From NCBI GenBank assembly GCA_965178125.1, contig OZ237759.1:186001-250000 (forward strand): a DNA stretch of 64,000 bases, given 5' to 3'. The notes below the pieces were generated by a model. It was not told where the DNA came from and searched no databases. It was given only the letters and a program-made list of their open reading frames with translations. Shown here one piece after another: positions 1 to 55,700 of the stretch (its first letter is position 1; each line of letters opens with the position of its first letter). Both the position numbers and the translations under genes were made by a program. This DNA is from Bilabrum cf. latius. Lineage: Eukaryota.

Positions 1-2
1 AC

Positions 3-25299: not shown

Positions 25300-27360
25300 T
25301 TACTCATCCAAGTGGAGAGCAAGCTCGAACTGAGCCGGCAGCACGGCCCCTGCAGGCCCCGCCTCCCAGTCGGCCTGCTGCAGAGAGAGCGGCCACTGCG
25401 TGACGAGTCCAGAGGCGGCAGTGGCCTCGGCTCGCAGGATGGACACAGGGCCCTGCCTCGTCCACCGGATCGGCGAATCGGAGCTTCCGACGGCGTTCTA
25501 CCCCCCGTCGCCGCCGCCACTGACACTGGCCTTCCAGCGGGACCGCACGGGGAGGACGGCGTACCCGGGACCCACTGCAGTGGGCTGCACCTCCTCGCCA
25601 TCGAGTGTGAAGGACAGACCCGAACCGTCCACGGGCACGAACGGCCCGCCCACTCCACCCACTGGCACTCGTCCTTGCACCGCGCTCTTCGAGGTGAGCC
25701 CTACCCACGTCACGTTCACCTCCGCGTGCCCCTGCAGCACCGCGCCCGTGGGTGGGCTGGTGGGCAGCAGCACGGTAGATGCCCCCAGCGCCGCCGCGGG
25801 GCCCTCCTTCAGCACAGCGGTAGCCAGTCGAAGCAGGTTCAGCTGCCTGTAGCCGTATCCGCCGCACGTGGCGTTGGGCCGCTTGTACCCGCAGGCCGCT
25901 AGATCCGTCGGCTCCATGTCGTTGGTAAGCTCGGAGCTGTACGAGTCCACGAATCGATCGTGCTGTGGGCCATACCCGCCCCCGTTGGGCTGTCCCGCGA
26001 ATTCGTTCCATTGGTTCACCAGCACAAAGCTGAGATCAGCGCCCTCACTCCCGCTCTGACTCTTGCTCTGACTATTGCCCTGACTCCTCGCCCAGATGGA
26101 CAGCACGGTCCTCAACAAAGTGGCACCGCCCTCGTGTCCCGCGGCTCCAGCGCCAGTCCAACCGTACTGGGCGAAGTACGCAGAGGCAGCCGTGGCCGCC
26201 TCTGCGGAACCGTCCGGGCGCCGCGCGATGATCGGATCAGGCACGCCGTCCATCCACGACCAGTACTGCAGCTGCTCGGTGCGCGGGGGCATGAGCTGCA
26301 GCTGCGACGCCATGAACCTGAGGGCGAACCGAGGGTGCCTCCAGTCGCTGTGGTTGGCGCCCGAGCCGTCGAAGATCACGGCCAGGGGCAGCTGCGGCGC
26401 GCCGGGTGCATCGGACTGCGGCGCGGTTACGAAGCTGTCAGCTCCGACCGACTGGTTCGCGACCATGGCCTCGTACACGAAGTCCAGCTCCTCGTAGATG
26501 GCCTCCTGCGTGGTCTTGGGGCCGTTGTCCAGGCCGAGGAGAAGCGCGAACCGGGGGACCGATGCCGCTCCTATCGGATCGCCGGATGCCTCACGGCGCC
26601 TCCGCTCTTGCGAGTACACGCCCATCGTCAGCTGGGTGGCGTTCACGATCTCCTGCACGTTAGGATTTCGCTGCGCCCAGGCGGTCTTGCCCCACAGGTT
26701 GTTGCTCCAGTCCACGAAGAGGAAATCCACCCCCGCCGCCTCGATCCAGGCCATGTGCTGCAACATGGGCAGCTGCTCCGTGCTCGCATACCTGCCCACC
26801 GTCGGAATAGCTTCGGCGGTCATCACGCCGTTAGCCCAGTTGAAGTTGTGGGGTGTGAACCATGGTTCCCAGTCTAATCCAACTAAGGGCGCCCCGCTGG
26901 ACCCGCCGGCGCTCGCTCCCTTGTGGTTGTCGGTTCTCCTGGCAGCTGCTGCAGCGACCTACACGGAAGCAGCATTGCTTTCAGCCACAGATTGGAAGGC
27001 AGACGACGGTTTACCGACAGTTGGTCCGAGGCTTGCCATACTGCTGAAAGGGCATGCCAGCAGGGTGACGGCGTGCTCGCCCGGAGCGTGTGGCACTACG
27101 AGCTGAAATGAACCAGCCACGCTTTCGTTTCCGGCGGCAACATCTGATCCCCACTGCAGGCCATCCACGAATGGAAGCATGATTAAACTACCGGAGATGC
27201 TCACTGACGCGCTCCACTGACATGCAAGACCCCGAAACTGCGAGACTGTAGGAGGATCGCATTGGATCTGAAGCGAGAGGCCCGCAACATTCATGCAGTT
27301 CGCAGCTGGCTGCAGGACAGCGATTAAAGCCGCAGTAATAACAATTCGTGACACAGTCAT
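25300..27360 (-). CDS. Secreted glycoside hydrolase, GH99-like TIM barrel, ~686 aa
   Basis: Signal peptide MTVSRIVITAALIAVLQPAANC. Motifs VGLDWEPWF, PTVGRYAS..LQHMAWIEAAGVDFLFVDW and VLVNQWNEF. Joined across TAG 26959 and 25498. Ends TAA. Confidence 0.68.
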
Positions 27361-27479
27361 TGCGACAATTGCCTTCAGAGGGTGCCGAATGGCTCTCCAC
27401 TTGCCCGGCCGAGACTGCTCGGAGCCAAATACAAACCTCTGCAATTCGTCGCCAATCACTCGTTGGCGGCGCACAATAC

Positions 27480-29186
27480 ATGATACATGGCACGGATCAT
27501 GCAATTTTGATACTTCGAACGATCCGCCGCTCAATCGTCGGAGCTCTTGCCGACTTGAGCGGGACTGTGCATGTCGATTCGAAGCTTGTTGGGGGCTCTC
27601 AGAACGCGATCCGATGCATTGCACGGCATAAACTACCGGTGCACTTTTTAAGTAATACGTCAAAGGCGCCAGCCTCGGCTATAGTCAGCTAGCTGAGATC
27701 ATGCGGTCTCTCGGGCATGTCTACCACCAGCGTAACAACCTCACTGACTGCAACAAAACGCTTGATAGAAGCAGAGAAGCATAGGGCACTACTGCTTTTA
27801 AGCGATTCTGCATTCACAGAATTTGAGGATATCGAGGGGTGCGTATTGGCTCCAAAGTCTGGCCAGGAGGCTCCGTCAGACGGGGACCTTGCGAACCTAT
27901 CAGCAGTGGTTGTTGGCCTTGCGCCGGACCGGTTGCACTACACCGCACTAGATGCTGCCATGCGGGTACTGATTGGATGCGACAGCAACTCGTCTCCAAC
28001 GGCAACGCGCCCAGCCCGTAAGCTGTACGCCTGCCACACAGGCACCCACCAGCGCGGGGCAGACGGCTCCCTACACTTGGGCCCCGGCCCGTTCGTGCGC
28101 GCCCTGGCAGAAGCAGCGGAGGCTGCCGGCTGGGGCAGACGAGAAGGCGAGTGTATTGAGGACAATCTCCATGTAGTGGGCAAGCCGTCTCTGGCTTTCT
28201 TTCAGGCCGCTGTGGCCAGGCTAGGCGATCAGTAGTCGGTGGCCAGGTTAGGCGATCTGTAGTCGATGGCAGACGGAGACGGAGGTTGCACCGGCACCGG
28301 GGCACGCGATAGGGCTCCTTGGTCGGATCCCCGGGATGGCGCCAGGGACAAAAGTGATACATCCACGCATACAAGTGGAAGGCAAGAGGCGAAGGAGAAG
28401 GAGAAACGTCAGGGCGGGACGTAGGCCGAGGAGGAGGAGGGTGGAGTAGCTGCAAAGCGGAGCACTAGTCATGAATCAAACTCTTCTTCTGCAGGAGGCA
28501 AGGGGTATGCAGCGACTGTGGGTGCTTCGATGGTTCCGGGCCCTGCCTCTGTCCCCGTGGATGCAGCACCAGCTGTGGCGCCCCTGCCGCACGTGATGAT
28601 GATCGGCGACGATGTGCGGCAGGACGTGCTGGGGGCAGTGGAGCATTCGGGTGCGTTGCGGTGGCGAAGTGGCGGCGCTGATGAGTCCGGTAGCGGGAGC
28701 AGCTGTGGCTCTGCCCTCGGCATGGTGGGGGTGCTCGTGCGAACTGGCAAGTACCGAGGCAGGGCAGGCGGTGAGGATGTGCTGGTGGAGGAGGCCAAGA
28801 GGAGGGCGAGAGAAGGGAAGCACTGGTGGCCTGTGCTGTCCCTGCGGTGGAGGGGCTCGGGCGTGGGAGAGCCTGGTGTGGGAAAGCATGGTGTGGGGGG
28901 TCCTGGTGCGGGGGAGGACGAGCTAGCGGCAGGTGCAGGTGCATGCAATGGACTTGCAACCGAGGCGAAATCAAGCGCAGATGCTGCCAGTGGGAGTGGG
29001 AGTGGGAGTGGGAGTGGGAGTGGGAGTGGGAGTGGGAGTGGGAGTGGGAGTGATGCAGGTTCCGCTGGTGCTCGCCCGATCCAGATTTCAGCTGAGGTGC
29101 TTGTCGAGGGACCTGCAGATTGGAGGCATGGGGCGTTGGTGGTGGCTGATAGCTTTGAATAGGCGGCACTAGCTCTGGTGTAGTGA
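27480..29186 (+). CDS. HAD-superfamily IIA phosphatase (HDHD2/LHPP-like) with low-complexity insertions
   Basis: Motif I ADLSGTVHV, FLSNTSK, VVVGLAP, LGPGPFVRAL, VVGKP, MIGDDVRQDV and VLVRTGKYR lie in one frame across TAG 27690, 28233, 28260, 28422, 29160 and 29181. Ends TGA. Start codon uncertain. Confidence 0.85.
28212..28265 (+). repeat. 27-bp tandem duplication inside the HAD CDS
   Basis: gtggccaggctaggcgatcagtagtcg / gtggccaggttaggcgatctgtagtcg; each copy carries an in-frame TAG. Confidence 0.9.
28989..29051 (+). repeat. (AGTGGG)10 microsatellite encoding a Ser-Gly linker
   Basis: Perfect hexamer run within the HAD reading frame. Confidence 0.95.
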
Positions 29187-29350
29187 AATTTGCCGCATGG
29201 TTGGTCTCCAGTGACTATTTTGCTGACGGCGCGATGCGACCATGCTACCCCAGTCCAGCGGTTCGGCATCATTTGCCGCTTCCGGTTTGGTGTAGTCGGG
29301 CGGGAAGTGCACGAACTGAACGGTCTGTGGCGCCTGGACCCAGCTCTTCA

Positions 29351-32300
29351 ATGGCATCGCTATCCCCAGAGCACTATGTATTTCACTACATTATCGCTGG
29401 GATGGCTCTCCTTACTCTTGTGCTGTCGCTGGTAGACCGTTTTATGGACCCTACCGCAACCACCGACTCTCCTCGCATAAACCTTGGACCAGTTTGGTAC
29501 TGCATATCTGGAGTGCTATTTGCGTATTCATTGTTTTCATTGTGTGGTGCGTTTGGATGGAAGAGCGATTAGATAAGGCTCTTTCTGATAGCGTCATCGG
29601 TTGCGAACGCTGCTGTGAGCACGTGATATACTGCATACAAATTACTCCCCCAGAATTGCTTGTTAACAATGAGCGCCCCATTATGGTAATTTGATTGACT
29701 TTTATTTGCGCAGGCCTTTTCATCGCTCGTGCACCTTGCAGCTGGGGCATCTTCGAGCCGAATAATCTTTGGAGAGCCAAGCCTAGCGTAGCAATGGCTG
29801 TACAGCGCTGCATCCGTCATGAGCATCGGAAATGAGATAACTATCGCATTTAATTGCAGGAGGCGCAGATTACTCGGTATGTTGCTCGCTGGGCTGGGGT
29901 TGTGGGCGATACCGCTTATTTAGGCATATCCAGTCCATCCGTCCTTTGATGTGTTGATGATAGTAGCTCCATGCATAGCATTCCCCATGTCGACTGTATA
30001 TCTCCTTTTGGAAGCATTCAGGGATTATTTGTAGTGGGTGGATGAGGCCTTGGACCCGTACATGTCGTGGACATTTGAGACTGGCTGCTGTCGAAGCCGC
30101 ACCCCTACACGCGTGGCTCCGAATGTGGCGAACTTGAACTCACCACCAGGGGGCATCGCAGTCTAGCGGGATACAACCAGCAACGGTGATCACCCTCGTG
30201 ATGGTACCACCCGCCAGAAGGATGCTCCCGCCGCTACTCGGCGGCCCAAGGAGGCAACCGAGCTGGACGCGGATCCGCCAATGGCACCAGTCGGCCTGCC
30301 TCACTTCTTGCTTGCCCTTGGAATATTGTTTGGAACGATATACACGTATTCGTTCCATGCACCGAGGTCATTCGGTGTATCTTTTGCAGTGACCGAGTAC
30401 ATCTGCGTGGTATCGGCTGCCCTGTTCGTGATCTCAAGAGGCGCGCTGGCTCTGACAGTGCTGCGCAACGACGTGATGACCGTCTCTATGCAGGCAGCTG
30501 AGTCGCAGAAATGGAAGCGAGAAGCCGCCGATGCCCGCCTCAGCACCATCCAGCAGTTCACCAGGTACATCTTCCACGAGGCCCGGGTGCCTCTTCAGGC
30601 GGTGTCTCTGTCGGTGCAGGAGCTGCGGGAGAGCCTGAAGGAGATCCGCGAGCACGACAGAAAGATGCAGAGGGCGCTGCAGGCCACCTAGCAGCTAGTC
30701 CACCGCGAATTTGGGACGGACCCTGGAGCAAGCAGGGGCGCGGCTGGGCTCCTGGCGCGGCTGGCTGAGCTGGTCTAGCTGCGCGGAGAACTGGGTGGCA
30801 GCTTGCACGACGCCAAGGACGTGCTGATGTCCTAGCAGCAGGGGTGCAAGGGGCTGCAGTGCATCTTCGATGACGTGCTCGAGGCCCATCGCATTGAGCA
30901 GGGCAGGCTCAAGCTGAGACAGGAGACCGTGCAGATGGCGCACGTGCTCGCCGACGTCGAATCCACGTTCCGTCGCACAGCAGTGAGGAATGGGCTGTAG
31001 CTGGATACTAGCATCGCGGACGATGTCCCTATGGCGATTAGAGGAGACTCTGTCCGGATCGGCCAGGTCCTGTCCAACATGATCTCCAACGCGCTCAAGT
31101 TCACCCCGACCGGCGGACGTGTGCACGTGCACGTGGTGGCTTCAGGCCTCAGGGCTGCTGATTGGCGTGGACACCCAAGCGTGGAGTACGGCAAGGAAGG
31201 AGACGAGGCGGTGGAGTACGTCGGCTTAGCCATTCGCGTGCAAGATACCGGGTGTGGGATCTCCCAGGCTGATTTGGCCCAGCTATTCACGCCCTACAAG
31301 CAGGCCAGGCACGGCGAAAAGTACACGGGGTCCTCCTCCGGCCTGGGTCTGTACATATCTCGCGGGATCGCTCGTCAGATGGGGGGTGACCTGAGAGGCT
31401 ACAGCGAAGGCGAAGGGAGAGGCAGCACGTTCCTCTTCGAGTTCGAGTCATAGGTGCTGCCAAAAGCGTCCAGCGGGAGCGGGTCGGGATCTGGTGCACT
31501 AGACACAGGGATGAGGCAAATGACCTTGATATCAGCCGCAGGATCGGTGGCCCCAGCGACTGAAGAGGAGGATGCTGCGGACGAGCGGCAGCACTCCCAC
31601 CTTGAGCTGCAGCCCATCTCGGAATCAGTCGAGGTCCGATCCTCGGCGGGAATGGCGTCATCGCTCGAGTCTCACTAGGACCAACATCAGGACGATGAGC
31701 GCGTGCATCGGCAAGATGGCACGTCTCCCTCAATGCGTCCCTTGCCAACCTCGCACGATGAATAGGGAAGCACATAGCCGGGCAGCATGGAAGAACGCAG
31801 TCGCAGTCAGTACCAAACCCCGAAACCAGGCTAGACGAGGAGTCAGCTCCGCCGAGTGCGAGGCCGGGGCCGGGTCAGCTAGGAGCGGGAGGCTGCTCAT
31901 GCCGAACAACATGTCGCAGTGGCAGCAGAGTCGCGACTTACCACTGCGCGGGGCGGTGTGACTGCTGGTTCGCTGGATGTCGGCGATGGCTTGCGCGGCA
32001 GCACGGCAGCAGCAGCCAGCTCGAAATCCAGGATGCGTTCCGGCCAGCATACCATGTCACCACCTCTGCATGAAAGGACACTGCCATCGGTGCACAGTGA
32101 TCCACACTCCAACCAAGCAGCCGATGCCGCTGTGGATAAAGGTGAATCCACTCGCGTGGACGCTGTGCGAGCTCGAGGTGAACGGGATCGTACATTGGAC
32201 AAAGTACGGGCTGACCCCAACAGACCGACGGGCAGACACAGCGACGAGGCCCGGCCTGAAGCCAGGATGGCGGCTGGTACTACTGGGGCTGCATCGGCGG

Positions 32301-32737
32301 CTTGTGCTGGCTCTGGTGGCGATGCTCCTCGCCGCGACGCCGATGCACTCAAGCAGTGGTGCCTCGTCGTGGACGATGTGGGCGTCAACCGTAAACTGCT
32401 TGCCAGGGGAATGCGAAGGCTGGGCTATGCAGTGCACCAGGCAAAAGACGGGAGCGTGGCGGTGGAAGCATGCCGGGCACGCGCCGCCGATGCTGGGCCT
32501 GGCGTTCCTTGCCTCGGTCTCATCACGATGGACAAGTCGATGCCCGTGATGGACGGCGTGGAGGCGACACTTGCGATCCGAGAAGAGTTTGGAACTCGGT
32601 TTGTGATTGTGGGGCTTACCGGGGATGCTTTGGGTGAGGACCTCGTATCGTTCAAGGCAGCCGGGCTGGACGATGTGCTGAGCAAGCCGTCCAGCGCCAA
32701 GGACATGGATAGGGCAGCCCGTGCGTGCGTGCCGTGA
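29351..32737 (+). CDS. Hybrid histidine kinase (multi-TM rhodopsin-like sensor + HisKA + HATPase_c + receiver), ~1095 aa; intron 29615..29713
   Basis: H-box IFHEARVPL, N-box QVLSNMISNALKFT, G1 VQDTGCGI, G2 SSGLGLYIS and receiver VVDD..MDKSMPVMDG..LTG..SKP. One frame across 15 TAGs after removing a GTGAGC...GCGCAG 99-nt intron. About 8 hydrophobic N-terminal segments. Ends TGA. Confidence 0.88.
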
Positions 32738-32886: not shown

Positions 32887-35800
32887 TCACTGCCTGCCAC
32901 CCTCTCGCGACGACTGCGCCATCGCAGCGTGTGCGGGTGGTCGCAGCAGCTCGAGCAGCTGCCCAGGCTCTGGTGTGCTCGTTACACCCATGGCCTCGCC
33001 CATCGGATCCAGCTCGCACACGTACGCTTGCGGGATATCACCCCCTGCTCCGCTACCGTCGGGCAGCGTCCTGAAGTCCAGCCCCTCCCATGCCAGCGCA
33101 GAATCCAATGTAACGGGGGCGAAATGCTCAACCTCACCCTCCCTTCCGCTGGCAGGCTAGTCACCTAGAGCCCCCGCTGCACCACCACCCGTAGATCCCG
33201 CGATGCTGGGCACGGGCACTGCATCCAGCGGTGTCACCGCACTCTCTCCGTCGACCAAGTGCGCCGCCACAACCCCAGGGCTATACCTGGAGAACAACGC
33301 GTACTGTAGAGCTGCCGCCTCAAATCCCCTTGGGTCGGACGCCGCGATGGCTACACGCCTAGGAGACAGCACACCGGGCCCCTCTAGCTCACCCACCTCG
33401 CCAGCACCCCACTCGCCAGCACCCCCTTCCTCGCTCGCCTCTTCACGATGCCTCGCCTCCATCTCCGCCTCCTCCTCCCCATGGTGCCTTGGCCAGCCCT
33501 CGGAGGCCGGCCACCGGGCCAGCGACTCGGCCACCGCGGCCAGGGAGGGTGCTTTCTGCGCCGCGGCCTCGCCAGTGCCGTCCATGTCGAGGATGCCCAC
33601 CAGGCACTCGGCCGCCTCTCGCGCCCGCCTCGCATGGGCGGGGTCACCTGAAAGCACCGCGAGGCGCTGCAGGTTGCGCACGCTCTCGGAGGCTGGAGAT
33701 GCGCGGCGGGACTCAAAGGAAGCTGCAGCACGCTCACGGGAGGCACCGGCCGCTCCGTACGCACCCGCCTGCGCCCGCGTCGCGCTGAAATACCCCACGC
33801 TGCGGCCGCCCCAGAAGAGCCTGTCCTGCGTGTACTGCAGCTAAGTCGCCCATTCGAGCCACTCCTCCTCCCCACAGGCGCAGTGCAGTTCCAACAGCGC
33901 AGCGATGGTGGCCGTGTAGTCCTCCAGCAGGCCCCCCGCCCCCACAACGCCCGGCCTGCTGGCGTTGTATCCCCGCTTGAGACCCGCCAGCACCGTCCTC
34001 TTGCCGCTCCCACTTCCACTCCCGGCCGAGGACGACACCACCGCAATCTCCGCCGAAAGCCTCTCCCGCGCGAAATGCCCGGCCTCCACCGCAGCGTCCA
34101 GCCACTTGCTCCTGCATGGCTCGGCGAACTCTGCCATCGCGTGCGCGGTCATCACCCGCTCCTCCGCCCCGTGCACCGCCTGCCACACCCTGGAGGGCAT
34201 GACAGCACCGTCCTGTCCTGCAGAACTCCTCTGCGCCTGCAGCTGCGTGATTGCGTCGTGCGTTTGCTTCCTCTGCTGGAGGCCCTCCATCGCGTGGCGG
34301 GGCTCTAGATACAGCCCACCCTCGGCCTGCGGACCCGCCCCGCCGCCCCCCTGCAGAGGCACCAGGGGAAGCACGCCCGCCGCCCTGGCCAGTGCCTCGG
34401 TCACCCGTGCGTGGGACTGGGTCAGCACCAGCGGGTACGGCACCAGCGCCTTCCTGGGGTCTAGCTCGGCGGCGCGGCGCAGGCAGAGGTTTACCTCGCC
34501 AAGCGCAGAGGTGACGGCAGCGGTGGTGACCCTGGGCATGGCACCGGAGTCTCGCAGGGCGCGCGCCAGTCCCTCTGGGGAGGAGGACTCGCGGAGCACG
34601 TTCATCCCTGTGCTGGGAGGGAGTGGGGGCCTTCGCTTGGGAGCGTCGGTCGACGTGTCGCCGGGGCCTGGTGTCCCATCGTGTTCTTCTTCCGCGGCTG
34701 CTACGCTCGGGTCAGGGGCAAAGTCGTCGTCTTCCCCACTCGCCACAGCAGCAGTATCATCGCTGTCTGCCAGCACCGCTTCTGTCGTTCTCCCGCCCGG
34801 CTGTGCCGCCTTCCCGCGAGCCCACTCGCCCAGCCAGCCGACAGCCGCCGCCTGCTTCTGGGTCTGTTCCTTGGACGACAGAACAGGATACCCCGCCGCG
34901 ATCCCGTCCGAGACGTTGCCCCCGGGGGCCAGCCCGTAGTGCGCGCACGCCAGGAGGAGGGCGTCCCTCCAGCGGAGCACGGGCTGCGAGGGCGCGCCGG
35001 AGTCCTCCTTGGCCACCTACCCACGGTTGGTCAGACGCACGGGGAGCCCGTGTTCGTCCAGCCCGCCGGGGTGCTCCAGCAGCGGCTCCAGCGCCCTCTG
35101 CACCTCGTCTGTGCTCCACAGGGCCGGGAGCAGCGGAGGGGCGGCCGGGGGCACTGCCTGCTCCTTCATGGCTTCCAGCAGCTTCTCCCGCGTGGGATCC
35201 TACCCTGCCCCTGCCCCTGCCACCCCCGTGCTGCCGCTCCCTTCCCTCTTCTGGGCCCCCTTCGCGCCCTCCGCCGAGGCCCTGGGTCCAAGCCCAGAGT
35301 AGAACCCCCCGCCCTCCGTCCGGAAGTCCCTTAGGCACCTGTCCAGGGCGCGCCCCGCTGCGTTAGCCAGCACCGGGTCCTTGGTGCACTGGTACCCCTC
35401 CAGCAGCATCATGGCGATGTCGCCCTGGTCCTCGGCCATGACCTCGCAGGACGATGGGAGGTGCCAGCGGCGGCTCCTCGAGTACCTGTAGAAACCCCCC
35501 CTCGCGTGGTCATGCCAGCCCCCCTGCAGCATGCGCCGCATGGAGAACCACGCCTCGGCAAGCCGCGCCTGCAGCACGTGCACCCCTCCGCCTCGGCGCA
35601 GCATGGGGGATGGGAGCGCGGCGCCGTCGGTTCCCTGCGGAGCTGTACCCGAGTCCGAGCCACCCTGTTCTCTATCCACTTCCCCTTCTCCCGGTTCCAG
35701 CAGCCCGCCCCACGCCGCCCTCCTCCTCCCGTCGCGACCAGGCAGTGCGTCCACAGCAGCGTGCGGGTCGCTCCTCAGCGCATCCGCTAGCAGGCCCCTC

Positions 35801-37458
35801 GTGTCCTGCAGCAAGCCCGGGTCGGTGCCCTGCAGCAACGCAGCAACCCGAGCGTCCGCACTCGTCACCTTCTGCTGCTCGCGCGCGGCCCGCACGGCGT
35901 CGTCATCACGCGCGGCCTGCTCCGCCTCGGCCGCCTCCAGTTCCTCCAGCTCCCTCTGCAGCGGGCCCAGGACCTCCTCCCTCCTCGCCTCCCTGCCGTC
36001 CTGGAGCGCCTGCACCCCGCCGCTCCCGCCGCCACTCTGACCACCCTCTCCGCCCTCGGTGGGAGCCGGGGCACCCGGGGGCCTGCTTAAAATATCCTGC
36101 GCCTCGGCGGGTTTCATGTGCTTGATGTCGCTGGCGGTGTATCCCCTGTCCAGCAGGTCAAGCTTCATGGAGGCAGTGATCATGAAAGCCACCTGAGCCA
36201 CCGTGCCGCTCGCCCCGGCTCGAGCAGCCTCCTGTTCCCTGGCCTCCTCCTCCAGCTCGTGTTCCCGGGCCTCGAACGCGGCCTCGGCTGCCTACAGCTG
36301 CCTCACCCGCTCCGCCGCCGCCCCCTCCCGCCTCCGCGCGCGGGCCTCGCGCCATGCCTCGATGGCCCGCGCGCGGCCCGCAGCACCAGCGATCGCATCG
36401 CAGCGGGCAGCCACAGCGGCAAGCAACGCCCTGATCCTGACTGGCCTGGGCATCTTGGGCATGGATCCCTCCCCGCCGAACAGCGGGTCCAGCTGGGTCG
36501 TGTGCTGGCCCATCAGGGCGGCGTGCGACCGTGCTGCCAGGTGGGCGAGTCGTGCTCGAGGTGCTAGCGATCTGCTCTGCGGGGCCTCCCGCGCACTGGT
36601 GTCAGTCTTTGCTGTGTTTTCTTGCTACGTGCCTTCCTGCACTGCCTCCAGCCAGCGCGCCCCTGCGGCCCTCAGGGCTCCCCTGGACGCATCCCCTGCC
36701 CAAGCCTCCGCCACCGCTCTGGCTTGTGACATGAGACCACGCACGGTAGGAGGGGGTATAGGGGCGTCTGGGTCGGATTGAGATGCCTCCCTGACCTCGG
36801 CCTCGTACTTGGCCTGCTGCTCGGGGGCTAGCGAGGCTCCGGCCGGCAGCACCGTGAGGGTCGCAGGCAGCGCGGCTGCTAGCGGGGCACGGGTCTCCGG
36901 ATCCAGAAATACGGCGTACGGCCATCCAGCACCGACTGAACCCGCTTGATGGCTAGCAAAGTCTACCAAAGCGCTGTCGGCATGAGGGTGCTCATCTCGG
37001 TCGAGCAACACGGGCACAAAATGCTCGGTTAGGTACTGTGCCCGCTTCGTGTGCCGGAAAACGCTCGCGCTCCATGCACGCATGCTCCCACGTCCCAAGA
37101 GACCTGAAGAAGAAATGCACATCACGGGAACGCCACGTTTGGCTGCCTCATCGAACGCACCAGGGCCCCACGTCCTCCATTGCACTCCATCTACCGCGTG
37201 CGAAGCCACAAACGGAGAGCCTGACGCCACTGCTCTCCCCGTCGACTGTGACGGAGATCTTTGTTTGGTGTCAAGCTTCGTTGCTTTTGTCGAGTGGCCC
37301 CTCATTGGCATTATTCGAGCCGCTCTGTCGTCTACGTCAATGGGAAATGGTGCACATCTTGCGTGGCGCTGCACGGCACACACTAGCCTCGCATACCGCA
37401 GAAAGGGTTTATCTAGGCGGCGGAATGCCCGTCTTGAAGCGTCCACAGTATCTTTCAT
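32887..37458 (-). CDS. SPATA20/YyaL-like protein (thioredoxin-like DUF255 + six-hairpin glycosidase-like), ~1520 aa
   Basis: SGSPFVASHAVDGVQWRTWGPGAFDEA, HFVPVLLDRDEHP, GWPYAVFL, GGWHDHARGGFYRYS..WHLP, GGFYS and LEDY..LLELH..WLEWA[T][TAG]LQYTQDRLFW. Six ORFs in one frame joined by TAG. Ends TGA. Start could be 37533. Confidence 0.85.
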
Positions 37459-37664
37459 GGGGCGCTATCTGGACGATCTGAAATCTGCGTTCGCACCAGC
37501 GTGGGCTGCAGCATTGGGCGCTGCGCAGATCATTCATCAGGTTCCGCACTGGACGGTGGATCCAAGTTGACGCATTACGGTTACGCTTTCGCGCGTGTTC
37601 GGCTGTAGAACCGTGGGAAAACGGGCGAAAAATCAAGAGAAATATTACTGCATTCTTCTGAATC

Positions 37665-38747
37665 ATGCACGCTATCTTGATCTCCGCTGCAGCTGCCCTA
37701 GCGGCGAGTGCAGTCGCCTCAACGTAGAACTGCACCCAAGGACCCAACACCGCGTGCGATAGCCAGTGGACCTGCTGCCAAACAGAGTATTCGAACTCTA
37801 ACACAGGATGCTGCCTGCTCCCGGATGCTGTGTGCTGTGGCAACGCACCGCCACCGCCCGTTCGCACTGCCGATGCGAAAGGCGAGCCACTCCCGTCCTG
37901 GGGAGTGGGGTACTGCTGCCCGTCCGGACACAAGTAAGAGATCCAGTACCATAATCAAGCCTCCTGCATGCATGGTATTGGCTGTACCCCGCATCCCTGC
38001 TGTTGCACCTTGTCAGCGCGCAGGTGCGTCAACATTACTGGCGGTGGGATCGGCTGCGAGGCCTCCGATTGGGCGGCTGCGGCAAGCGCGGCCAGCGCCG
38101 GCAGCCCCACCCCTGCCAACTTCGTGTGCAAGCCGGGGGCCTCCAAGCCGACGAGCCGCACGCAGCCCAACATCGCGGTCCTGGGTGACAGCGTGAGCAT
38201 CGGGTACGAGCCCCCTACGGCTGCCATGCTGTCATCCAAGTACTTTATCCAGCACACGCCGTGGGACACCAGGGGAGGGGGCAGCGGCACGTCCCAGTAC
38301 GGCCTGGAGTGTCTCCCCGCCCTCATGCGTACCTCTATGAGCGAAAAGGTCAGCTGGGACCTGGTGGTCTTCAACTTCGGGCTGCACGACCTAGACCCCT
38401 CCAACTCGTCGCAAGCCACGTACGAGCAGCAGCTCAAGGAGATCGCTCAGCAGCTGCGGCAGTACAGCGCCAAGCAGCTCTACGCCCTCACCACGCCCTA
38501 CATGCCCGACAAGACCCAGGGCATCGACATCGTGCAGGAGCTCAACGCCAGAGCCGAGGCCGTCATGAAGGAGCTGGGCATTCCCGTGGTGGACCTGTAC
38601 TCGGCGGTGACGGACGTGTGCGGCAAGGTGTACACGGACTGCAGCATCTGCCGCAAGTCGCCTTGCTCGTACCACTACACCCCGGAGGGGTACCAGGTCA
38701 TCGCAAAGACGCTGGCGCCAGCCATCGAGGCCCAGATGGCGGGGTGA
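37665..38747 (+). CDS. Secreted SGNH/GDSL hydrolase with N-terminal granulin-like Cys-rich module; intron 37934..38023
   Basis: Signal peptide MHAILISAAAALAASAVA, TAG 37725, then C..C..TCC..GCC..AVCC..CCP..C. SGNH blocks VLGDSVS, VFNFGLHD and YHYTPEGY. GTAAGA...CGCAG intron. Ends TGA. Confidence 0.78.
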
Positions 38748-40752: not shown

Positions 40753-40890
40753 GGCACGAGTGAATGCGACGCTTGCAGTTCGAGACAAATGGAGTTCCTT
40801 GGTTCCGCTCCGTCATCACGAATGCGCGGCGCCGCTCCCTGCTGGCGCCACTTCTGCAACCGGAGTTGCGCCTGCGACAAGCCTGTAACC

Positions 40891-43549: not shown

Positions 43550-43580
43550 GGCTGCGGTAGTTGCCCTTGCTTCGCAAATA

Positions 43581-45430: not shown

Positions 45431-46914
45431 TCACAGCTCCTCGTCCTCCTCATCGGCGTCCTCCTCCTCCTCGTCCTCCTCCTCCTCGGCGGCCTTGCGC
45501 GCCTCCTCCTCGGCCTTGCGCTCTTCCTCGGCCTTCTTCCTCTCGGCCTCCTTGGCATCATCGTAGGCCTTCTTCTCGGCGTCCTTGTTTGCCTCGAACG
45601 TCTCCTTGGCGAAGGCCTCGGCCTCCTCCACAGAGTCAGTCACGATGATGTCGTCGAAGATGGTGCCGGCCTTGACCTGCCACAGCTCGAACGCGACGTT
45701 CGTGCAAGGGTTCTCCTTGGAGCAGACCGCGTACACGTTCTCGTCCTCCTCGTAGTCGGGGTTGGGGATCTCGGGGTGCACCCAGGCGCCCTTGTAATCG
45801 GGGTTGTCGATCATCTTGGGGGACCACTCGCCCTTGTAGTCGGGGTTGTCGATCATGGGCGCCTCCCAGTCCCCGTCCTCCTCGTCGTCCCAGTCCTCGG
45901 GCTTGGCTGCCTCGGGGTCGGGGATCTTCTCCGGCACATCGTCCCATCCCTCGGGCTTCTTGTCCTCGGGGTCGGGGATCTTGGCCTCGTCTACCCAGTC
46001 CTCGGGCTTCTTGGCCTCGGGGTCCTTGATCATCTTGGGGGCCAGGAAGTCCCAGTCGTCGAAGAGGGAGCCGCTCTCGACCTTGCTGCCGTCGATCTGC
46101 ACCTCGTACGTGTTGTCGGGGCTCACGATGAACGTGTAGCGGTGGGACAGGTTGTCAGTCTCGCACCGGATGCTCTTCTTCGTCAGCAAGTTCTTGCCCT
46201 TGTACGTGAAGATGGCGTGGGTCTTGCGGGTGGAGGTGCCGCAGACGTCGGGGCCGAACATGATGGCGTACTCGTCATCGCCGCCGAACTTCTTGGGGTC
46301 CTTGATCTTGGGGGTCAGCTTGATGTAAGCGCCGCCGCAATCCAAGTTCTGCTCGTGGCGCACGGTGTACGAAAGCACGAGCTTGTTGCCCTCAGACACG
46401 AACTCGGTGTCGAGCGGGGCCGAGGCCGAATAAAAGCGAGCATCCTGGCCGGTCTGGATCCCGACATTACTCGAGTCCGCGAGGTTCTCGGCAAGCTTCC
46501 ACTCTCCCATCTGCAAAAAATAGACAATAAATTATTTAATTAGTGCAGAGGTCACTGCCAGGCCATTGTGCGGTGGTGCCCCACGTTGGCATCGCCACGT
46601 GGCTGGAGCGGGCCAGCCAACCGCAACTGCGACGCAAAGCCTTAAACTCACCTCTGAAGAGGACTTCCACTCCGATCCGATGGTCCATCGGTCCTGCCAA
46701 TCAGCTGCGAATACTAGTAGGAGCTGGTACAGGCGTGAGCCGACAATGGCACGCGGCACGACGCGTGGGAGATCACGTGGCAAGGATCCCACGTTGCAGT
46801 CCCTTCGATGCAACCTAGCGACCGCATTCACTCACCGTCGAACGAATCCTTGAAGTATGTCTTTGCCGAAGCAAGAGCAGCAAGACCAGCAAGCACTGCG
46901 AGAACGACGCGCAT
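45431..46914 (-). CDS. CALR: Calreticulin; exons 46914-46836, 46704-46652, 46510-45431
   Basis: Signal peptide MRVVLAVLAGLAALASA; IQTGQDARFY, HEQNLDCGGAYIK, IMFGPDVCG, KPEDWD P-domain repeats, ELWQVKAGTIFD; acidic tail ending DEEL. Two GTGAGT..CAG introns. Ends TGA. Confidence 0.96.
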
Positions 46915-47137: not shown

Positions 47138-48613
47138 ATGTCGGCACTTGTTCGCAGGTATCGTCGAAATAAGGTGCTGGGATTGGCACCACTGACGCTG
47201 CTGGGTTTGATCATATTCCTGCCAGCGCTTGCGCTTGGCGGGACGGACTTCTACAGGGTCCTCGGTATCCAGCGCGGTGCGAATGATAATCAAATTAAGA
47301 GAGCGTACCGAAAGCAGGCACTGAAATGGCACCCTGATAAGCACCCGGACAATGAATAGAAAGCGACGGAAAGATTCGAGAAAGTCGCAAAGGCGTACGA
47401 GGTTTTGTCAGACCCAGAGAAGCGAAGAATCTACGACCAGGTTGGTGAAGAAGGCCTCGATGGAAATGGTGACCCTCACGGTGGTGGGCCTCCCGGATCC
47501 GGGGGAGGCGGTCCAGGCTTTGGTGGGCAAGGTGGGCCCGGTGGTGGTCCTGGCATGCACTTCTCCTTCTCGGGTGGACCGGGTGTCAACTTTGGGGCCT
47601 CTGCGTTTGACATGTTCGAGAGGATGTTTGGGCAGCGTGGCGCGGGCGGCGGCTTGTTTGGTGGGATGGGCATGGGTGGTGGTGGTGGTGGTGGCGGCCG
47701 TGGCGGCCCTCGGGGTGGTCGGGGCCGAAACCGTGGTCCGCCGCCGCCTCTGTTCCCCAAGGGATCCGCAGTGCATCAGCTGAGCGCCGCGGGCATGAAA
47801 AAGGTCGGGAGAACGGGACGGGGCCGCACTGTCTGGCTGCTCGCGTTCCTGGACGGCAACGACCGGGGGCAGGGGCAGGGCGGCTCTCGGGAGGTCGCCG
47901 GGGCCCTGGACAAAGCGGCAGATGCGCTGCAGGGGGCCGCTAGGGTGGGTGTCGTGGATTGCGCGCGGCACGGGAAGGTGTGCCAGGCCCAGGGGATCCA
48001 AGAGGTCCCGCACATTAAGGTGCTGGGGCCAGACCGAGCAGAGGAACACAGAGGCAACCCAGCCTCCGCGAAGAGGCTGAGAGACGCGGCCGTGAATGCG
48101 CTGCAGGAGGCGGAGAACAGTTTTCGGGTTAGGGTATCCGGGGCGGGGCAGGCGCAACTCAGGGGCCTCAAGCGGCGGTGCGCCCGGTCTGCTAGTGGCT
48201 GCGGGCTGCTCCTATCCTCCTCGCAGCAGCCCAGCGCTCGCCTCCTTGCCCTAGCCGGGGCCCTGCGGGACCGAGAGGATATGGAGGGTGTGGCGAGTGG
48301 GCTGGACCTGTACCTGGTGAGCCTGCCGAGGGACAGCCCGGAGGCTTGCCGCGAGGTGGACAGGGCCCTGGGGCTGCCCAACGGAACCGCAGCTGGCGCC
48401 GCGCAAGGGCCCGCTGTGCTCACGCATGTCAGTGGTGAAGACGGTTCATCTGCCTCGGTTCACAGTTAGGACAAGGGAGGACGGGGAGGCGCGCAGGGCA
48501 GCCACGCTGGTGGAAAGGGGTCTTCGAAGTCGGAAACCTCTGCATGGACGATGTAGAACAGCATGGCCCGGTTCTTGGTCTAGCAAGCGGCTCGCCGAAG
48601 GGGTGCAAGGTAA
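47138..48613 (+). CDS. ER-type DnaJ protein (signal peptide, J domain, G/F-rich region, thioredoxin-like domain), 491 aa
   Basis: [28 protein letters not shown][TAG 47357][26 protein letters not shown] is an intact J domain only with readthrough. Trx-like VWLLAF..VGVVDC..C..P. Further TAGs at 48467, 48554 and 48581. Ends TAA. Confidence 0.9.
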
Positions 48614-48780
48614 CCTACTCGTAAGCAGTTCTTTGTAGCTTATCCACCCTGTTTTTGGACGGACAGCAACACCAGATTCGTATGGGTATTATAACCTGAT
48701 CGAGCCGTAGCTACCCGTAGAATCAATGCGAAGATGGGCATCCAAATTATCCGAAAAACATGTGATATTCACCGACTTAG

Positions 48781-51700
48781 CCGGCGCCGTGAAAGGTCGG
48801 ATTTGGCCGACCGACCGGTATCGCCGATATCGGTACCTTCAATTCACCTTACCGATTCTCGCGTACCATTCAAGTAATCCTAAAATAATATCAAGATATT
48901 GAAAATTGTATAAGTTAACTATCGACTGCGAGTGTTACTCATTGATAAACTTGCGACAATAGTATACTTGGTGGTCATGAAACCAAACGCTCGATTTTCA
49001 GGAAGGGCTACTTTGATACTGCAGAAGTTTGTCCAAGCAGGCATGCTTGCAAAATAAACAAGCTTTTTTGAATTAATCGGTGGTTATATTATATATAAGT
49101 CTTAGCGCAAAAAAGTTACCGAACGGTTTACAAGATATTGAATCGAATGTGGACCTGCCATGAATTACGTGCTTCGTGACCCGATTCTTGTGCATCTATC
49201 TACTTGGCATTTATATCAACTTAATCTACATCACAGCCAAATCATGTTTCCAGATGATACAGAGATTCTTTACAATCCCCACAAATGAACTTGCAGCAGC
49301 GTGAACACACTTTGTAGGAAGAAACCGACTAATGATGCTGCCGCTTGCTGCATCTGGAGCCCTTGCACTTGGCGCTGCACCCCCCTCGACGGCTCTTTGA
49401 TCGTCCGCTACTGAGAAAATTAATCAGTCCTGCTTGTAACTACTCCTTTCCAATCAAATGGAGCGAGCCCAGCAGCGTAGCTACCACGTGCTGCTTTCTA
49501 CATCCAAGGTTCCCGGGGGTCGCCTCCGCACGCATCCCAGCTGAGGTTGCAGCACCGCGAGTTCCTGCACGTGCATGTCGGTAAGGACGCATCAATTCGT
49601 CATACAACAGCTGCACAAACATACCACGAGCCTGTCGATGCCGCACCATGTGCTAAACCTGTTCCTGAACGGATTTGCTGCTAGCTCCAGCAGCTTGCCG
49701 ACGAGTGGGTCCGTGGCGTAGCAGTCGACGTGCCTCCAAGTTGACCCAGATGATGTACGTATTGACGATAACTTGCTCCATTAAACCTTCCCACACTCTT
49801 AAGTATGCCCTAGTCTCTCCCTGGAATGAATTTGTTAGCGAAAGTTGCGTCCGGAACTTGTCAGCTAGATCCACACCCCCCATGTACTTGTTGTAGAGGA
49901 CGGACACGAGGGGCGCGTTCACCACACTCAGGTCGCCACCATCTCTCCGTAGCGTCTTTACCAAGCAAACAAAGTACTTCGTAGGAATGTTAGAAGCCAT
50001 AAGAAATGGTTCGCGGTCACAGTATCCAAAAACTTGCATCCCATAAGCTGAATCATCTGGCGAGTCAAAGGCTACTGTCTGGCCAGGGCTCAACAGGCCC
50101 CGACTGCCAAGGTCCTCTTCGGCCAGCAGCGATCCCGCAGGAAGCTCACTCGCATCAAAAACATCACCAGCTGTTACATTACATAAAGATACTTTGCTGG
50201 GCCCAAGAAGAGCGCGCTTCACAGTATGCCCGCGTTCGCCTGGGGTTCGTCTGTTCAGCTAGCCAATCGCGTGGTACAGCTCACCGCTCACTTTGCCTTG
50301 GCGAAGCGTGCCAACAACCCGAAGGCCTTTGCTGGTGGCCCAATCACACAGTGGAGCCGATGTAAAGTAGTTATCCACCGCTAGGAGGCCCCCGTTCAAG
50401 TTTTTGCCCATTGCCTTCGACGCAACAGCTGCTGTTTGCAGGTCCATCCGGGTCAGCTACCCGGCAGCGGTGCCGCTGCCGGTTGCTACCTTATACGAGT
50501 ACTCAGTCTTCCCTCTGTACTATCGTGTATCATCGGCAACAGATGTTGCTAGATCCAAATGGTACACATACCCGTCTTTTCGTGCAGCTGCCCATAGCTT
50601 AAAGCCATGCGATGTGGGCTTGTTCGGCATGATGACACATGCCCGATTTCGGCCGTACGCCATCACCATCATCTCATCGACGGCGATGCTCTTTGGGCTC
50701 AAAGTAGCGGCACGAAAGTACTCTGAAACTGCATCTAGCATGCCTGGTGGATATTCTATGAGTACCCGCTCGCGAGGACTGCCCACACTCCCTAGCCTCA
50801 TTGTGGCGCGCTCCTCCGCCAGCAGGGGTGCCGGAGCCTCCTGCAACCTCCCGGCGAAAGACAAGTTTCGATGGAACCGATTCCAGTCTTGCACTACGAT
50901 ATCGTCTTTCATGCGCACCAGGAACTACTTTGATTGCAGCAATTCTAAAGGTATCCGGGGTCGAATGAGAGACCGAGTCAATACCACGGCCAGGAACATC
51001 ATGGCAACTGGCATGTCCATTGGTTGGTCGCTGCCGGCTGGCCGGCTGCCTGGCCAGCTACCTCTGCCGCTGCAGTGCCTCGCCACGAAAATGCAATATC
51101 GAGAGGCACCAGCGAGCACAGAATGCGTATTGGAGATATTGGTTGTTCATGATGAGCCGTCATCCAGCCTTTGACATACTCAGTAGCAGCCACATGAGTA
51201 GCCGCTGTGCGAGCGATCGGGATCCCATCACCGCCAATCACAACCCGGTCATTCAAGAAGTACCTATATTCAGGCTCATCAACCAACGATGCAATTTTGT
51301 CCATAGGAAACATACTTTCATATTGCTCTATTCTGCGCCGCTTTGCTTGGTGAGCCTACTGCCTCCTACGATGCTGCACCGGAGGCCGGCTCAAAGTTGC
51401 AGACCGACTGGATACCGGCTCGTCCTCGTCTGAATCGCCGACATAGTCCATCTCATCATCGCTGGCCTATGCTTCGCCCAACAAATCACGTAAATCATCA
51501 TCTTTTGTCGATTTATTTGCATTGTCCTCTTGCCGTTTACGCTTGGACCCAGCGCGTCGGCTCGAACTGGCCGCATGGGACGGGCTGCTTCTTGACTACT
51601 TGCTAGCAACCGAAACGCTAGATATAGGTTTACAAGACTCCAATGAGAATTTTGGGATTGACTGAGATGCTTCTGCGAAGGCTAAGCACAAATAAGCGAT

Positions 51701-52675: not shown

Positions 52676-52707
52676 TTAGTACTCGGCCCGAATAGCAAAC
52701 TACTGAA

Positions 52708-55700
52708 TTAGGCTGGAGCTAGGCCAGGACACGGCTGTAGCGATCGCGACCAAATCAGGGCGAGCACAACCATCGGCACCGACACGCTCAGCAGCTGCAG
52801 CCGCTGCAGGCCCACCAGCACTGGCTCCAGCCCATACACAGCGCGATCCTCCGACTCCTGGAGCACTGACCGAAGCAGCTCGGCATCATCCCCGCCCGCT
52901 GCCAGGCGAGCCGCCGCCAGCGAGCACTCCTGCCAACCACACACCCCGAGCACGCACAGCACCACCCACACCAGCACGCCTGCCACCAGCACGTCCTCCG
53001 CCAGGCGAAGCCACCATCCGTGCCTGTGCACAACGCCAAGCCGCAGCTGCAGCGACCGCCACGCCAGCTCTTTCAGAGACTTGCGGGGCCCTTCCTTTTG
53101 CCCAACACCATTATTGTCTACATGGTCCTGCAGCAACGGCCGCCTGCTGACATGCCTGGCTGCCTGCACATCGTCCCTGTATGCCATCCATGCCGCGGCT
53201 GCCTGGACCTCCCATGCCAGCACGGACAGGCCCCTGATGGCCGAGAAGAGGGCGGGCTGCAGGGCCTGCATGCGGGCCAGTCCCGCGATGGCTCGGTCCT
53301 CGCTGGAGGCAGAGGCGCGCAGCGCGGCAGTGAGCACCTGGGGATCTTGCCGCAATAGGTTGCTTGGTACTCGTTCACTCTGGACAGCAGTTGGAGTGGA
53401 CCGATGAATATCGTCGGTTTTGCTTGCCGCCTTCCGCGGCTCACAGACAGTGTGGTCCTGGTGGCCAGGCGCCAGCACACCTCCCGTCGACTGGACGATC
53501 TGCTCGTCCTCGGTATCGAAGAAGTCCATGGATCTTGCCAGGTCACCCAGAGTACTCCGGGAATCGTACGGATGATCTTCCGAGTCAGAAACTGAGTGTG
53601 AGTTTGGCTGCTGCAGCGGCCCTTGCACCGAATTAGCATCGCTATCTGCAGCTTGTTGGCATCGAGCTGTGGACCGCAGCACGGCAAGTCTGGTCCTGGC
53701 CAGCCTTGCTGTGCCCCCTTGTGGGCGACTGTTGCGGTCTCGCCATGATGCCGCGTTCTAGCCACGGGCATCCTCAGGCGCCTTGGCAGACCCACCGGCA
53801 GGAGGAGCCGGCTTCCGCGGTCCCCTGGAGTCAACGTCTGGAGGAGCCCATGCCTGCTCGGTCCCATCCGTCTTGCGCCCCGCCCTCCTCAGCTGTCGGC
53901 CCTGAAGGGGAGCCCCCACACTCGTCCACAGCGCGGCAGGGTCTGACTCTCCAGATGTTTGGTTCTCGGATGAACCTCCCCACCCACCAGCACCAACGAG
54001 TGCGGCCGTCAAACTGGCACAAATGGCGCTGCAACCATCGCAGCAGCAATAGCAAGTCTCAGGGGGCATGCAAAGCAAGGAACACTGGAATTGCTCATTG
54101 GCTTCCTATTCATTTGCCGGGCCAACATGATTGGGCTACTCGCCTGGCCCCCCAACTGAATACGGCTACCCAGGAGCAAAGCCTGCATCGCCCATTTCGG
54201 CCCTGGCTGGAGCTTTCCATGCATCAGCTACAGAACCGAGCAAATCCACTCTGCACCCCAGCACCATCCCTAGTCGAACCACGCACATAATGGCCAGTCC
54301 CAGCCCCAGCACTAGTGCAGGCAGCGAGCACTCGGCATACACGAGGGTCACCACTAGCGTCCACAGCCAGACAGTTCTCGATGCGAATGCACTAACCCCG
54401 GACACGTCGTGCCAAGCAGCGGTGCTATCATCGCGACGTGATTCTGACTGTGCCGTTTGGACACCATGTTGCCATACTATCGGATCCTCGTACTAATGGT
54501 CGTCATCAGAGCCTTGCTACAGCACTTCATCTTCAAGACTAGTAGCATGAACAGAATCCGCCATCATGACCCGCAAGTCAATTGCGCCGCATAAAGTCGC
54601 GAAGAATGCCATGGCACTGGCTGCAAGCAGAAGCAGCTGCGGCCACATCGTCGACTTGCCAAGCAGCACGCCCCACTCCTGCTCGCAGTGCTCTGCTCTT
54701 GCCTTGCCCATCGCCTTCAGGCATGGCAGCTGCACGCTGTACGACACGGACTCGGGATCCACCGCCAGCAGCCAGGTGCCGCCCTCGCTGCCCGGCCGCT
54801 GGCCCCGGAGAGTGGCGGCCAGGCGCTGGGCCACGGCGCCGGCGGACCGAGCGCGTTGTGGCAAGTTGGATACAGCAGCCGATTGATTGCCATTTGGGGC
54901 TTGCGGGTGTACCAGCACAGTGATCGACAAGCGCATCGGCAGCATCGGCCGAGTACTTGACGAAGGCCTACTGCTCATATTTACGAGCGCAGCTGACCCA
55001 GTGCGGATCAAAACCACCCGAGCATCCCACCGTCTGGACTCAGCAGTGTCTCCGGCCAGATCTCTGAGGTCATCCAGTAGGTCATCCAACATCCACTGGA
55101 TTTGGGTGGGGCCGGGGTTCGGGTAGTCTAACCCAGGCGGCTGATCCGCGCCCCACCAGATTGCCATGGCCTGTGCAGGCAGCCACACGTTCCTGTCGAA
55201 CAGAAGGTCAAACGTGAGTACTGCACGAGCCACGAGCTCGCGCGAGCCCCAGCTCTGCAGCAAGAACCGATTGTGCAGGTGAAAAAACCGCTGGCTTCCA
55301 GAAGGGTGGTCCTACCTACATACCATCTCTGGTGGTGCTGGAATAGAGCTAGTATTGGAGCCATACCTGGGTACGGGGTACCCGCCCTTTGCAGCTCCGG
55401 GTACAAGAGGTACCACGGCCGGTGCTTTCGCAAGCCGATCCACCTGCAGCAGCTCGTCCGACTGGTGCAGCCGAGGGTGTCCCAACCACTCGCCGTACCA
55501 CACCCGCACCACGCTCGCCAACTGCTCCCAAGCACCCTCAGACTGCTCCAGGCCCACGTCTACTGGCAGCCGGATGGGATCATCGCACGCTGCCACGCAC
55601 ACGGGCCGGCCCGCGAAGTTGCCCAGCAGGCTGGATCGGTGGCAGACCCACGAGCCCCCCTAGATGCGCGGCAGGGAGCTGTCCGGGTGCAGCGGGAAGA

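Follow-up and report, generated by a model that had tools for sequence, protein, structure and literature searches.

Reassignment of UAG alone, with UAA kept as a stop codon, was first described by Panek et al. 2017 (PMC5304391), with UAG read as leucine in a rhizarian (exLh) and as glutamine in Iotanema, and with UAA as the main stop. Three phyllopharyngean cases were added by McGowan et al. 2024 (PMC11687900), where also Protocruzia tuzeti (glutamine) and Scotinosphaera (serine) are listed. These two papers point out that a CUA anticodon pairs with UAG and not with UAA, which makes the UAG-only direction mechanically easy, and that Iotanema, exLh and the phyllopharyngean ciliates all rely on UAA as stop; in the ciliates described in the later paper, UAA terminates 86.9-98.3% of the genes, UGA being the least used of the stops. 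A code in which UAA and UAG specify different residues has been described as well (McGowan et al. 2023, PMC10553269). The subject of this analysis is a stretch of 64,000 nucleotides from the assembly of Bilabrum cf. latius (GCA_965178125.1, contig OZ237759.1, positions 186,001 to 250,000 of the forward strand), called the window in the following. Its genes probably use a code of this type, in which UAG would specify glutamine while UGA (common) and UAA (rare) would act as terminators, by way of a tRNA-Gln(CUA) and a changed eRF1.

Like in the window, only UAG is reassigned in Iotanema spirale (Fornicata), to glutamine, and UAA is kept; a tRNA-Gln(CUA) has been predicted and an eRF1 change is suspected in that organism (PMC5304391), and we infer both for the window. 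The eRF1 changes concerned are T32G in Iotanema and L69A in exLh. The main terminator is UAA in Iotanema but UGA, at 18 of 21 gene ends, in the window, and whereas Iotanema is an anaerobic metamonad studied through its transcriptome, the window is DNA of 63% G+C with stramenopiles as best named matches. Hartmannula sinica, Trochilia petrani and Protocruzia tuzeti share all three assignments and a heavy use of in-frame UAG (PMC11687900), but the order of stop codons that this paper gives for its ciliates, with UAA first and UGA last, is reversed here. Also in exLh, in three phyllopharyngean genomes from TARA (both leucine) and in Scotinosphaera (serine) UAG is decoupled and UAA is a stop, but the amino acid is another one, whereas the evidence from the window favours glutamine (PMC5304391; PMC11687900). 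Code 6, which is found in many ciliates, hexamitin diplomonads, some ulvophytes, Streblomastix and Amoeboaphelidium, has UAG as glutamine as well (PMC11687900), but there UAA is also sense, in contrast to the absence of in-frame TAA and the three TAA gene ends seen here. The assignment pattern of the window is that of NCBI table 15, which has the same assignments and says nothing on lineage or mechanism. This table is named for Blepharisma. As 'genetic code 15' (TAG = Gln) it has been applied to phages (PMC9523058). The original prediction, made from the letters of the window, had described UAA as decoupled from UAG, a codon with which wobble decoding and eRF1 normally group it; the decoupling is real here, but it is already published for other organisms, and wobble blocks only a reassignment of UAA alone. 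UAG-only reassignment with UAA retained is already known from several lineages, and the window probably represents a new, GC-rich one.

When the standard code is applied, the longest open reading frame (ORF) of the window has 905 codons; with TAG as sense, it reaches 3,453 codons and many others are longer than 1,000, and if TAA is made sense besides TAG, no further large ORFs are joined in the ORF scan. When the long ORFs were compared with Pfam, TAG being translated as X, a set of typical eukaryotic genes was recognised (IFT122, Ufm1-specific protease, ELMO-domain, HDHD2-like HAD hydrolase, hybrid histidine kinase, DUF255/thioredoxin, GDSL lipase, DDX47/RRP3, calreticulin, DnaJ, piggyBac-like transposase, PRPP synthetase and TLC-domain), and the window appears to come from the nuclear genome of a flagellated eukaryote that is rich in G+C and poor in introns. 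From ORFs, Pfam matches and spliced contigs, 21 gene models were built independently of the original prediction (Table 1). Pfam matches at the thresholds used are present in 12 of them, and four without such a match (orf9216, the 3,453-codon ORF, orf41177 and orf62121) were accepted on ORF length and codon bias alone. Counted from the first ATG, the 21 models contain 17,553 in-frame codons, among them 101 TAG, 0 TAA and 0 TGA, and 18 of the models hold at least one TAG; the two remaining frames of this DNA contain 36 + 51 = 87 TAA. Eighteen models end in TGA and three in TAA, which is the tally of the original prediction, at the identical three TAA places. The dominance of UGA that had been stressed there stands as a count, but it has no special meaning, since a G+C content of 63% predicts it: the 3:18 split of TAA and TGA ends follows the abundance of the triplets on the + strand of the window (TAA 200, TAG 399, TGA 676).

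The absence of TAA from the reading frames can be compared with what would be found if TAA were a synonym of TAG. In two-fold pairs, the ratio of A-ending to G-ending codons is 0.23 for CAA/CAG, 0.30 for GAA/GAG, 0.28 for AAA/AAG and 0.19 for TTA/TTG (range 0.19-0.30), and the lowest ratio when four-fold boxes are included is 0.14 (GTA/GTG). Multiplied by the approximately 100 TAG codons, these ratios give 14-30 expected in-frame TAA, and as none was found, the Poisson probability of zero ranges from 8e-7 down to 9e-14. The absence of in-frame TAA is not due to chance. Circularity was avoided by using ORFs bounded by TGA alone, in which TAA is not assumed to be a stop, and in these ORFs a TAA between two segments with coding evidence was never found, save inside introns. 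Frequent TAA within conserved domains had been named beforehand as an observation that would speak against a retained UAA stop, and the 21 models contain no in-frame TAA, the TAA that do interrupt ORFs being all intronic.

All three TAA ends look like gene ends with respect to their surroundings. Past the TAA at 25300 (-), read-through would add 110 codons up to a TGA at 24967, and this extension would overlap the start of the next gene, with its ATG near 25093, out of frame. Past the TAA at 48611 (+), which ends the DnaJ gene, the next in-frame TGA lies at 49139, 175 codons on and inside a repeat element, and the next in-frame TAA at 48692. Past the TAA at 52708 (-), the next in-frame TGA follows after 37 codons, again inside the repeat element, which starts 28 nt past this TAA. 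The G+C content at third codon positions (GC3) falls past all three (0.78 to 0.67, 0.62 to 0.40 and 0.72 to 0.60), as it does past most of the TGA stops. The end of the DnaJ gene is also covered by contigs of three sequencing runs from two studies (X6, X7 and X8), which cross the TAA unspliced and with 0 other letters and then stop at 48737, 48685 and 48749, respectively, 72-136 nt past the TAA codon and before any in-frame TGA, whereas the DNA run continues. Agreeing contig ends without poly(A) are rated a weak hint by the tool with which the contigs were placed on the window, and as such a weak hint, the one positive sign at the RNA level, they indicate that the DnaJ message ends its ORF at UAA. 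That UAA behaves as a terminator is thus supported within the window, and so is the decoupling of UAA and UAG that had been predicted, with 101 in-frame UAG, no in-frame UAA and three genes that end in UAA. A fusion of the ORF ending at 25300 with the ELMO gene through a TAA-holding intron was considered and rejected, as only one acceptor, ATCAAG, would restore the frame and it departs from the consensus.

Four runs were compared with positions 37850-57800. X1 is a DNA run; X6, X7 and X8 are called RNA-like here from their GT..AG joints, none of them being on record as RNA and X6 being marked by the tool as probably DNA. The joints mean that their contigs derive at least partly from spliced RNA. 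Six introns are supported in this way, and a putative seventh, in the hybrid histidine kinase gene, is predicted from the sequence and shares the splice consensus of the six; all seven donors are GTRAG with G at +5. The earlier statement that in-frame stops inside genes lie in canonical introns stands, for 37935 and 57493 through the joints and for 29624 through the sequence itself, but not its claim that these are the only ones, as there is also an intronic TAA at 46532. The earlier set was too narrow in introns as well, four more being present (41098-41266, 46511-46651, 46705-46835 and 57146-57237), which leaves the conclusion unaffected. In the DnaJ, DDX47 and orf41177 genes, the RNA-like contigs are identical to the DNA across the in-frame TAGs, and with 0 other letters at these places the TAGs are not edited away in the RNA.

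As to the amino acid, the most telling site is a TAG in the Ufm1-protease-like gene that aligns to the Q of mouse UfSP1 (chain 2z84_A) in the motif WGCxYRxxQ. Among the 36 homologues matched, two begin past the motif, and the column is Q in 34 of the 34 that bear it. A TAG in the large gene that ends at 52708 is replaced by CAG in a contig of X6 that comes from a slightly different strain, and a TAG in the HAD domain aligns to Q and R in the PDB alignment. Further sites come from L001, a metagenome contig of 57% G+C that was found through a match to a homologue of the protease. Its positions 1-6950 correspond to 2700-8116 of the window, with the 3' end of IFT122, the Ufm1-protease (41% identity between the two proteases) and a protease-like gene on the opposite strand in the same order, which makes L001 a relative with conserved synteny. 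L001 shares the TAG at the invariant glutamine codon of the protease, and at four other well-conserved sites a TAG of L001 stands opposite a glutamine of the window, for example IPA-TAG-HQETGFDC versus IPAQHQETGFDC. When TAG sites of either sequence were tallied only if at least 6 of 16 flanking residues were identical (n = 12), the partners were Q 4, TAG 1, R 2, A 2, V 1, D 1 and E 1. The three orthologous genes of L001 contain 17 in-frame TAG and 0 TAA and all end in TGA; the in-frame TAGs of this relative imply that the reassignment is common to a wider clade. Two database proteins of relatives, P0122 and P0123, begin just past the position of an in-frame TAG, which is the pattern expected from annotation with the standard code. 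The residues adjoining TAG give no clear signal (Q 1.4-fold and N 2.05-fold enriched). The expectation that TAG falls on conserved glutamine columns thus appears to hold, on a small sample and with several sites aligning to other residues, and from these alignments UAG very probably stands for glutamine.

Several observations weigh against the assignment of UAG to glutamine with UAA as a stop, and they are best discussed together with the explanations that they would favour. There are three TAA ends in 64 kb, and transcript support exists for one of them (DnaJ). Two of the three, at 25300 and 48611, are found in the context G|GTAAC, which resembles a splice donor, and as a confirmed donor in the GDSL gene (GTAAGA) does contain TAA, UAA might be unassigned or avoided and never act as terminator, with the TAA ends being errors of the models such as unrecognised terminal introns. 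This is very unlikely: both candidates have C at the position where all seven known donors have G, at 48611 the contigs from three runs follow the DNA of the DnaJ gene without a break, no acceptor of the consensus type downstream of 25300 brings the ELMO gene into frame, and the third TAA (GCC TAA TTC, at 52708) has no GT at all. A code like code 6, with both UAA and UAG as glutamine, the in-frame UAA too rare to be seen and the three TAA ends a matter of chance, would agree with the rarity of the TAA triplet and with UAR = Gln being described as the commonest nuclear variant (PMC11687900). It is nevertheless extremely improbable, since 14-30 in-frame TAA would be expected even over the full range of ratios (0.14-0.30) and 0 were found in 17,553 codons, at glutamine positions or elsewhere, against 87 out of frame, while CAA, the comparable A-ending glutamine codon, occurs 129 times; moreover, the DnaJ contigs end before any in-frame TGA, and at two of the three TAA, reading on would lead into a transposon.

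Other points concern UAG itself. Among the 420 terminal codons (20 from each of the 21 genes), TAG occurs five times where 2.4 are expected, with TAGs 1 and 8 codons before the TGA of the HAD gene, 10 and 19 codons before the TAA of the DnaJ gene and one in the ELMO gene; the HAD gene has the tail GAA TAG GCG GCA CTA GCT CTG GTG TAG TGA (29144-29186, +). UAG could thus be sense inside genes and a stop near the 3' end, some of the TGA and TAA then lying in 3' untranslated regions, and a context-dependent reading of this kind has been described for some ciliates and, with UAA, in Blastocrithidia. The terminal excess is not significant, though (P = 0.098), and in L001 a TAG lies 35 codons ahead of the TGA, with a C-terminal motif after it that is conserved with the window (QGVSWV...RWMGAG), from which it follows that this TAG near the 3' end is read through. 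In other UAG-only lineages, McGowan et al. 2024 (PMC11687900) found no dual meaning, and on the whole a context-dependent UAG is quite unlikely. Searches of the PDB with the C-terminal end of the HAD protein for signs of read-through gave only Gly-Ser linkers in one case and nothing in the other; HDHD2 may have a matching helix at its end. As to its identity as an amino acid, three TAG sites of the histidine kinase align to I/A/M, to L, and to E, E, E, P and T, respectively, the TAG in the J domain aligns to E, those of orf9932 to I, S and T (a single homologue with 36% identity, uninformative), and the one in the DUF255 protein to K in a poorly scoring stretch. UAG might therefore be leucine, glutamate or serine, as in exLh, a plagiopylean ciliate and Scotinosphaera, respectively, with UAA and UGA as stops. 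This is unlikely in view of the invariant glutamine column, of the TAG/CAG difference between strains, and of the 12 conserved sites shared with L001, where five of the 12 partners are Q or TAG against a glutamine share of 3.9% among all residues, and none is L. Finally, a tRNA scan detected no tRNA gene in the window and none in L001, the Rfam search of the window gave 0 matches, the Pfam scans revealed no eRF1 gene among the window's gene models, and in a DDX47 tree of 28 rows, 27 of which were chosen from 120 listed matches (those with a name, plus a few high-ranking ones without), the window forms a long branch beside another long branch and belongs to no supported clade.

Directly seen in the window are thus a UAG that is sense and kept in RNA, a UAA that is never in frame, and three genes that end in UAA. 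How glutamine at UAG with a retained UAA stop would be brought about can be proposed by analogy with the published cases. A tRNA-Gln with the anticodon CUA, one change away from CUG, would read UAG, and as this anticodon cannot pair with UAA, the latter could have remained a stop. The eRF1 would have lost or weakened its recognition of UAG and would still recognise UAA and UGA.

With regard to the lineage, the best named match of the DDX47 protein is from the stramenopile Cafeteria (64%), and those of IFT122 are an MMETSP entry, Triparma and Cafeteria (44-50%); no ciliate is among the named best matches of these two proteins. The host is possibly stramenopile-related. In a literature search that left most subscription journals outside, no UAG-only code was found reported in a stramenopile, a labyrinthulomycete or a GC-rich flagellate, and since the runs date from 2025, a description of this code may be published already or upcoming. 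It can be only tentatively suggested, with some doubt prevailing, that UAG was reassigned to glutamine independently, and so far unreported, in GC-rich and probably stramenopile-related flagellates with UGA as main stop, and that at least one distant metagenomic relative shares the change. If this is true, a high-G+C case with dominant UGA would argue against codon capture, in which A+T pressure removes UAG, as the general route, and a route by way of an ambiguous intermediate with tRNA-Gln(CUA) and eRF1 would be favoured. Each further independent UAG-only lineage strengthens the case that UAG and UAA can evolve apart, and one that is GC-rich and terminates with UGA can usefully be set against Iotanema and the AT-rich, UAA-dependent ciliates when codon capture is weighed against an ambiguous intermediate. 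The eRF1 of the host would reject UAG and keep UAA and UGA, a natural variant relevant to the expansion of the genetic code in eukaryotes (compare Panek et al., PMC5304391, where this application is touched upon). In practical terms, the genome and its relatives need annotation with TAG as glutamine, for which table 15 is usable, as the standard code truncates or splits most of the genes here.

Table 1. Gene models, introns and individual TAG codons of the window (positions in the 64-kb stretch; TAG counts are in-frame).
Feature	Position	Strand	Details
IFT122 gene, 5' end cut by window	3..3251	+	ends TGA, 3 TAG
Ufm1-specific protease-like gene	3344..4693	+	Pfam PF07910; ends TGA, 1 TAG
TAG codon of the Ufm1-protease-like gene, at WGCxYRxx[Q]	3584..3586	+	local context WGCCYRAC-TAG-S
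Gene with protease-like C-terminus	4985..8116	-	no Pfam match; orthologue in L001; ends TGA, 2 TAG
orf9216, GC3 0.83	9216..9875	+	ORF and codon bias only; ends TGA, 0 TAG
orf9932, secreted-looking protein	9932..11680	+	one homologue, 36% identity; ends TGA, 4 TAG
3,453-codon ORF, no Pfam family	11943..22304	-	ends TGA, 20 TAG
ELMO-domain gene	22478..25273	-	Pfam; ends TGA, 9 TAG
794-codon ORF, no Pfam family	25300-27684	-	ends TAA 25300..25302
HAD-hydrolase (HDHD2-like) gene	27342..29186	+	Pfam; ends TAG TGA, 6 TAG
Hybrid histidine kinase gene, two exons	29159..32737	+	Pfam; ends TGA, 15 TAG
Putative hybrid histidine kinase intron, 99 nt	29615..29713	+	GTGAGC...GCGCAG, predicted from sequence alone; holds TGA 29624
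DUF255/thioredoxin-domain gene	32887..37533	-	Pfam; ends TGA, 7 TAG
GDSL lipase gene, two exons	37665..38747	+	Pfam, spliced contigs; ends TGA, 1 TAG
GDSL lipase intron, 90 nt	37934..38023	+	GT..AG joint in X6, X7, X8; donor GTAAGA holds TAA 37935
DDX47/RRP3 helicase gene	38935..40812	-	Pfam; ends TGA, 1 TAG
orf41177 gene, no Pfam family	40912..43549	+	spliced at 41098-41266; ends TGA, 3 TAG
orf41177 intron, 169 nt	41098..41266	+	GT..AG joint in X6, X7
Calreticulin gene, at least 3 exons, 5' limit approximate	45431..46900	-	high RNA-like cover; ends TGA, 0 TAG
Calreticulin intron, 141 nt	46511..46651	-	joint in X6, X7, X8; holds TAA 46532
Calreticulin intron, 131 nt	46705..46835	-	joint in X6, X7, X8
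DnaJ/thioredoxin-like gene	47138-48613	+	ends TAA 48611..48613
In-frame TAG in J domain of DnaJ gene	47357..47359	+	contigs over 47149-48737, 0 other letters
piggyBac-like transposase ORF in repeat element	49242..51146	-	Pfam; ends TGA, 7 TAG
1,508-codon ORF plus upstream exons	52708-57234	-	ends TAA 52708..52710
TAG versus CAG strain difference	55660..55662	-	X6 reads G for A at 55662; codon 524 of ORF
Intron of gene ending at 52708, 92 nt	57146..57237	-	joint in X6, X7; donor GTGAGT after one-base shift
Intron of gene ending at 52708, 82 nt	57473..57554	-	CT..AC joint in X6, X8; holds TAA 57493
PRPP synthetase gene, last exon	58079..59074	-	Pfam; ends TGA, 0 TAG in 332 codons
TLC-domain gene	59917..62133	-	Pfam; ends TGA, 2 TAG
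orf62121, cut by window end	62121..63998	-	ORF only; ends TGA, 5 TAG

The repeat element between the DnaJ gene and the gene ending at 52708 is a multi-copy mobile element (48778-52679), over which the depth of the DNA run X1 is 118-155 versus 13-20 on either side; at each border, the run shows loose ends. The element carries inverted ends of 18 nt (CCGGCGCCGTGAAAGGTC) and is flanked by TTAG on both sides, begins 164 nt past the TAA of the DnaJ gene, and has no cover in the RNA-like runs X6-X8, which lack cover over 49172-52501. The seven in-frame TAGs in its transposase ORF mean that the element is written in the code of its host.

The use of TAG differs between the genes. It is absent from the two with the strongest codon bias, calreticulin (GC3 0.92, 0 in 360 codons) and PRPP synthetase (GC3 0.82), and frequent in genes of low bias such as the histidine kinase (15 in 1,160 codons) and the transposase (7 in 635 codons). 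Going by this contrast in codon bias, TAG behaves as a non-preferred glutamine codon. The 3,453-codon ORF, which is rich in Ala, Arg and Gly, has next to no bias of G+C towards the third position (0.70/0.64/0.68 at the three codon positions). Past the TGA codons at 11943, 22478 and 49242, an in-frame TAA follows after 3, 3 and 6 codons, respectively; these may be back-up stops, their number being too small for a test.

Between 43650 and 45000, about 1.4 kb lie under RNA-like contigs (X6 over 41267-44983, continuous with the upstream gene, and X8 over 43970-44733), and reading TAG as sense still leaves this region without an ORF of at least 130 codons; a long 3' untranslated region or a non-coding RNA may lie here. 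Within the large gene that ends at 52708, the joints 54369|54634, 54846|55399 and 55740|55969 are present in X6 and equally in the DNA run X1, and these joints within 54369-55969 reflect variation in length or the collapse of repeats internal to this gene and not introns.

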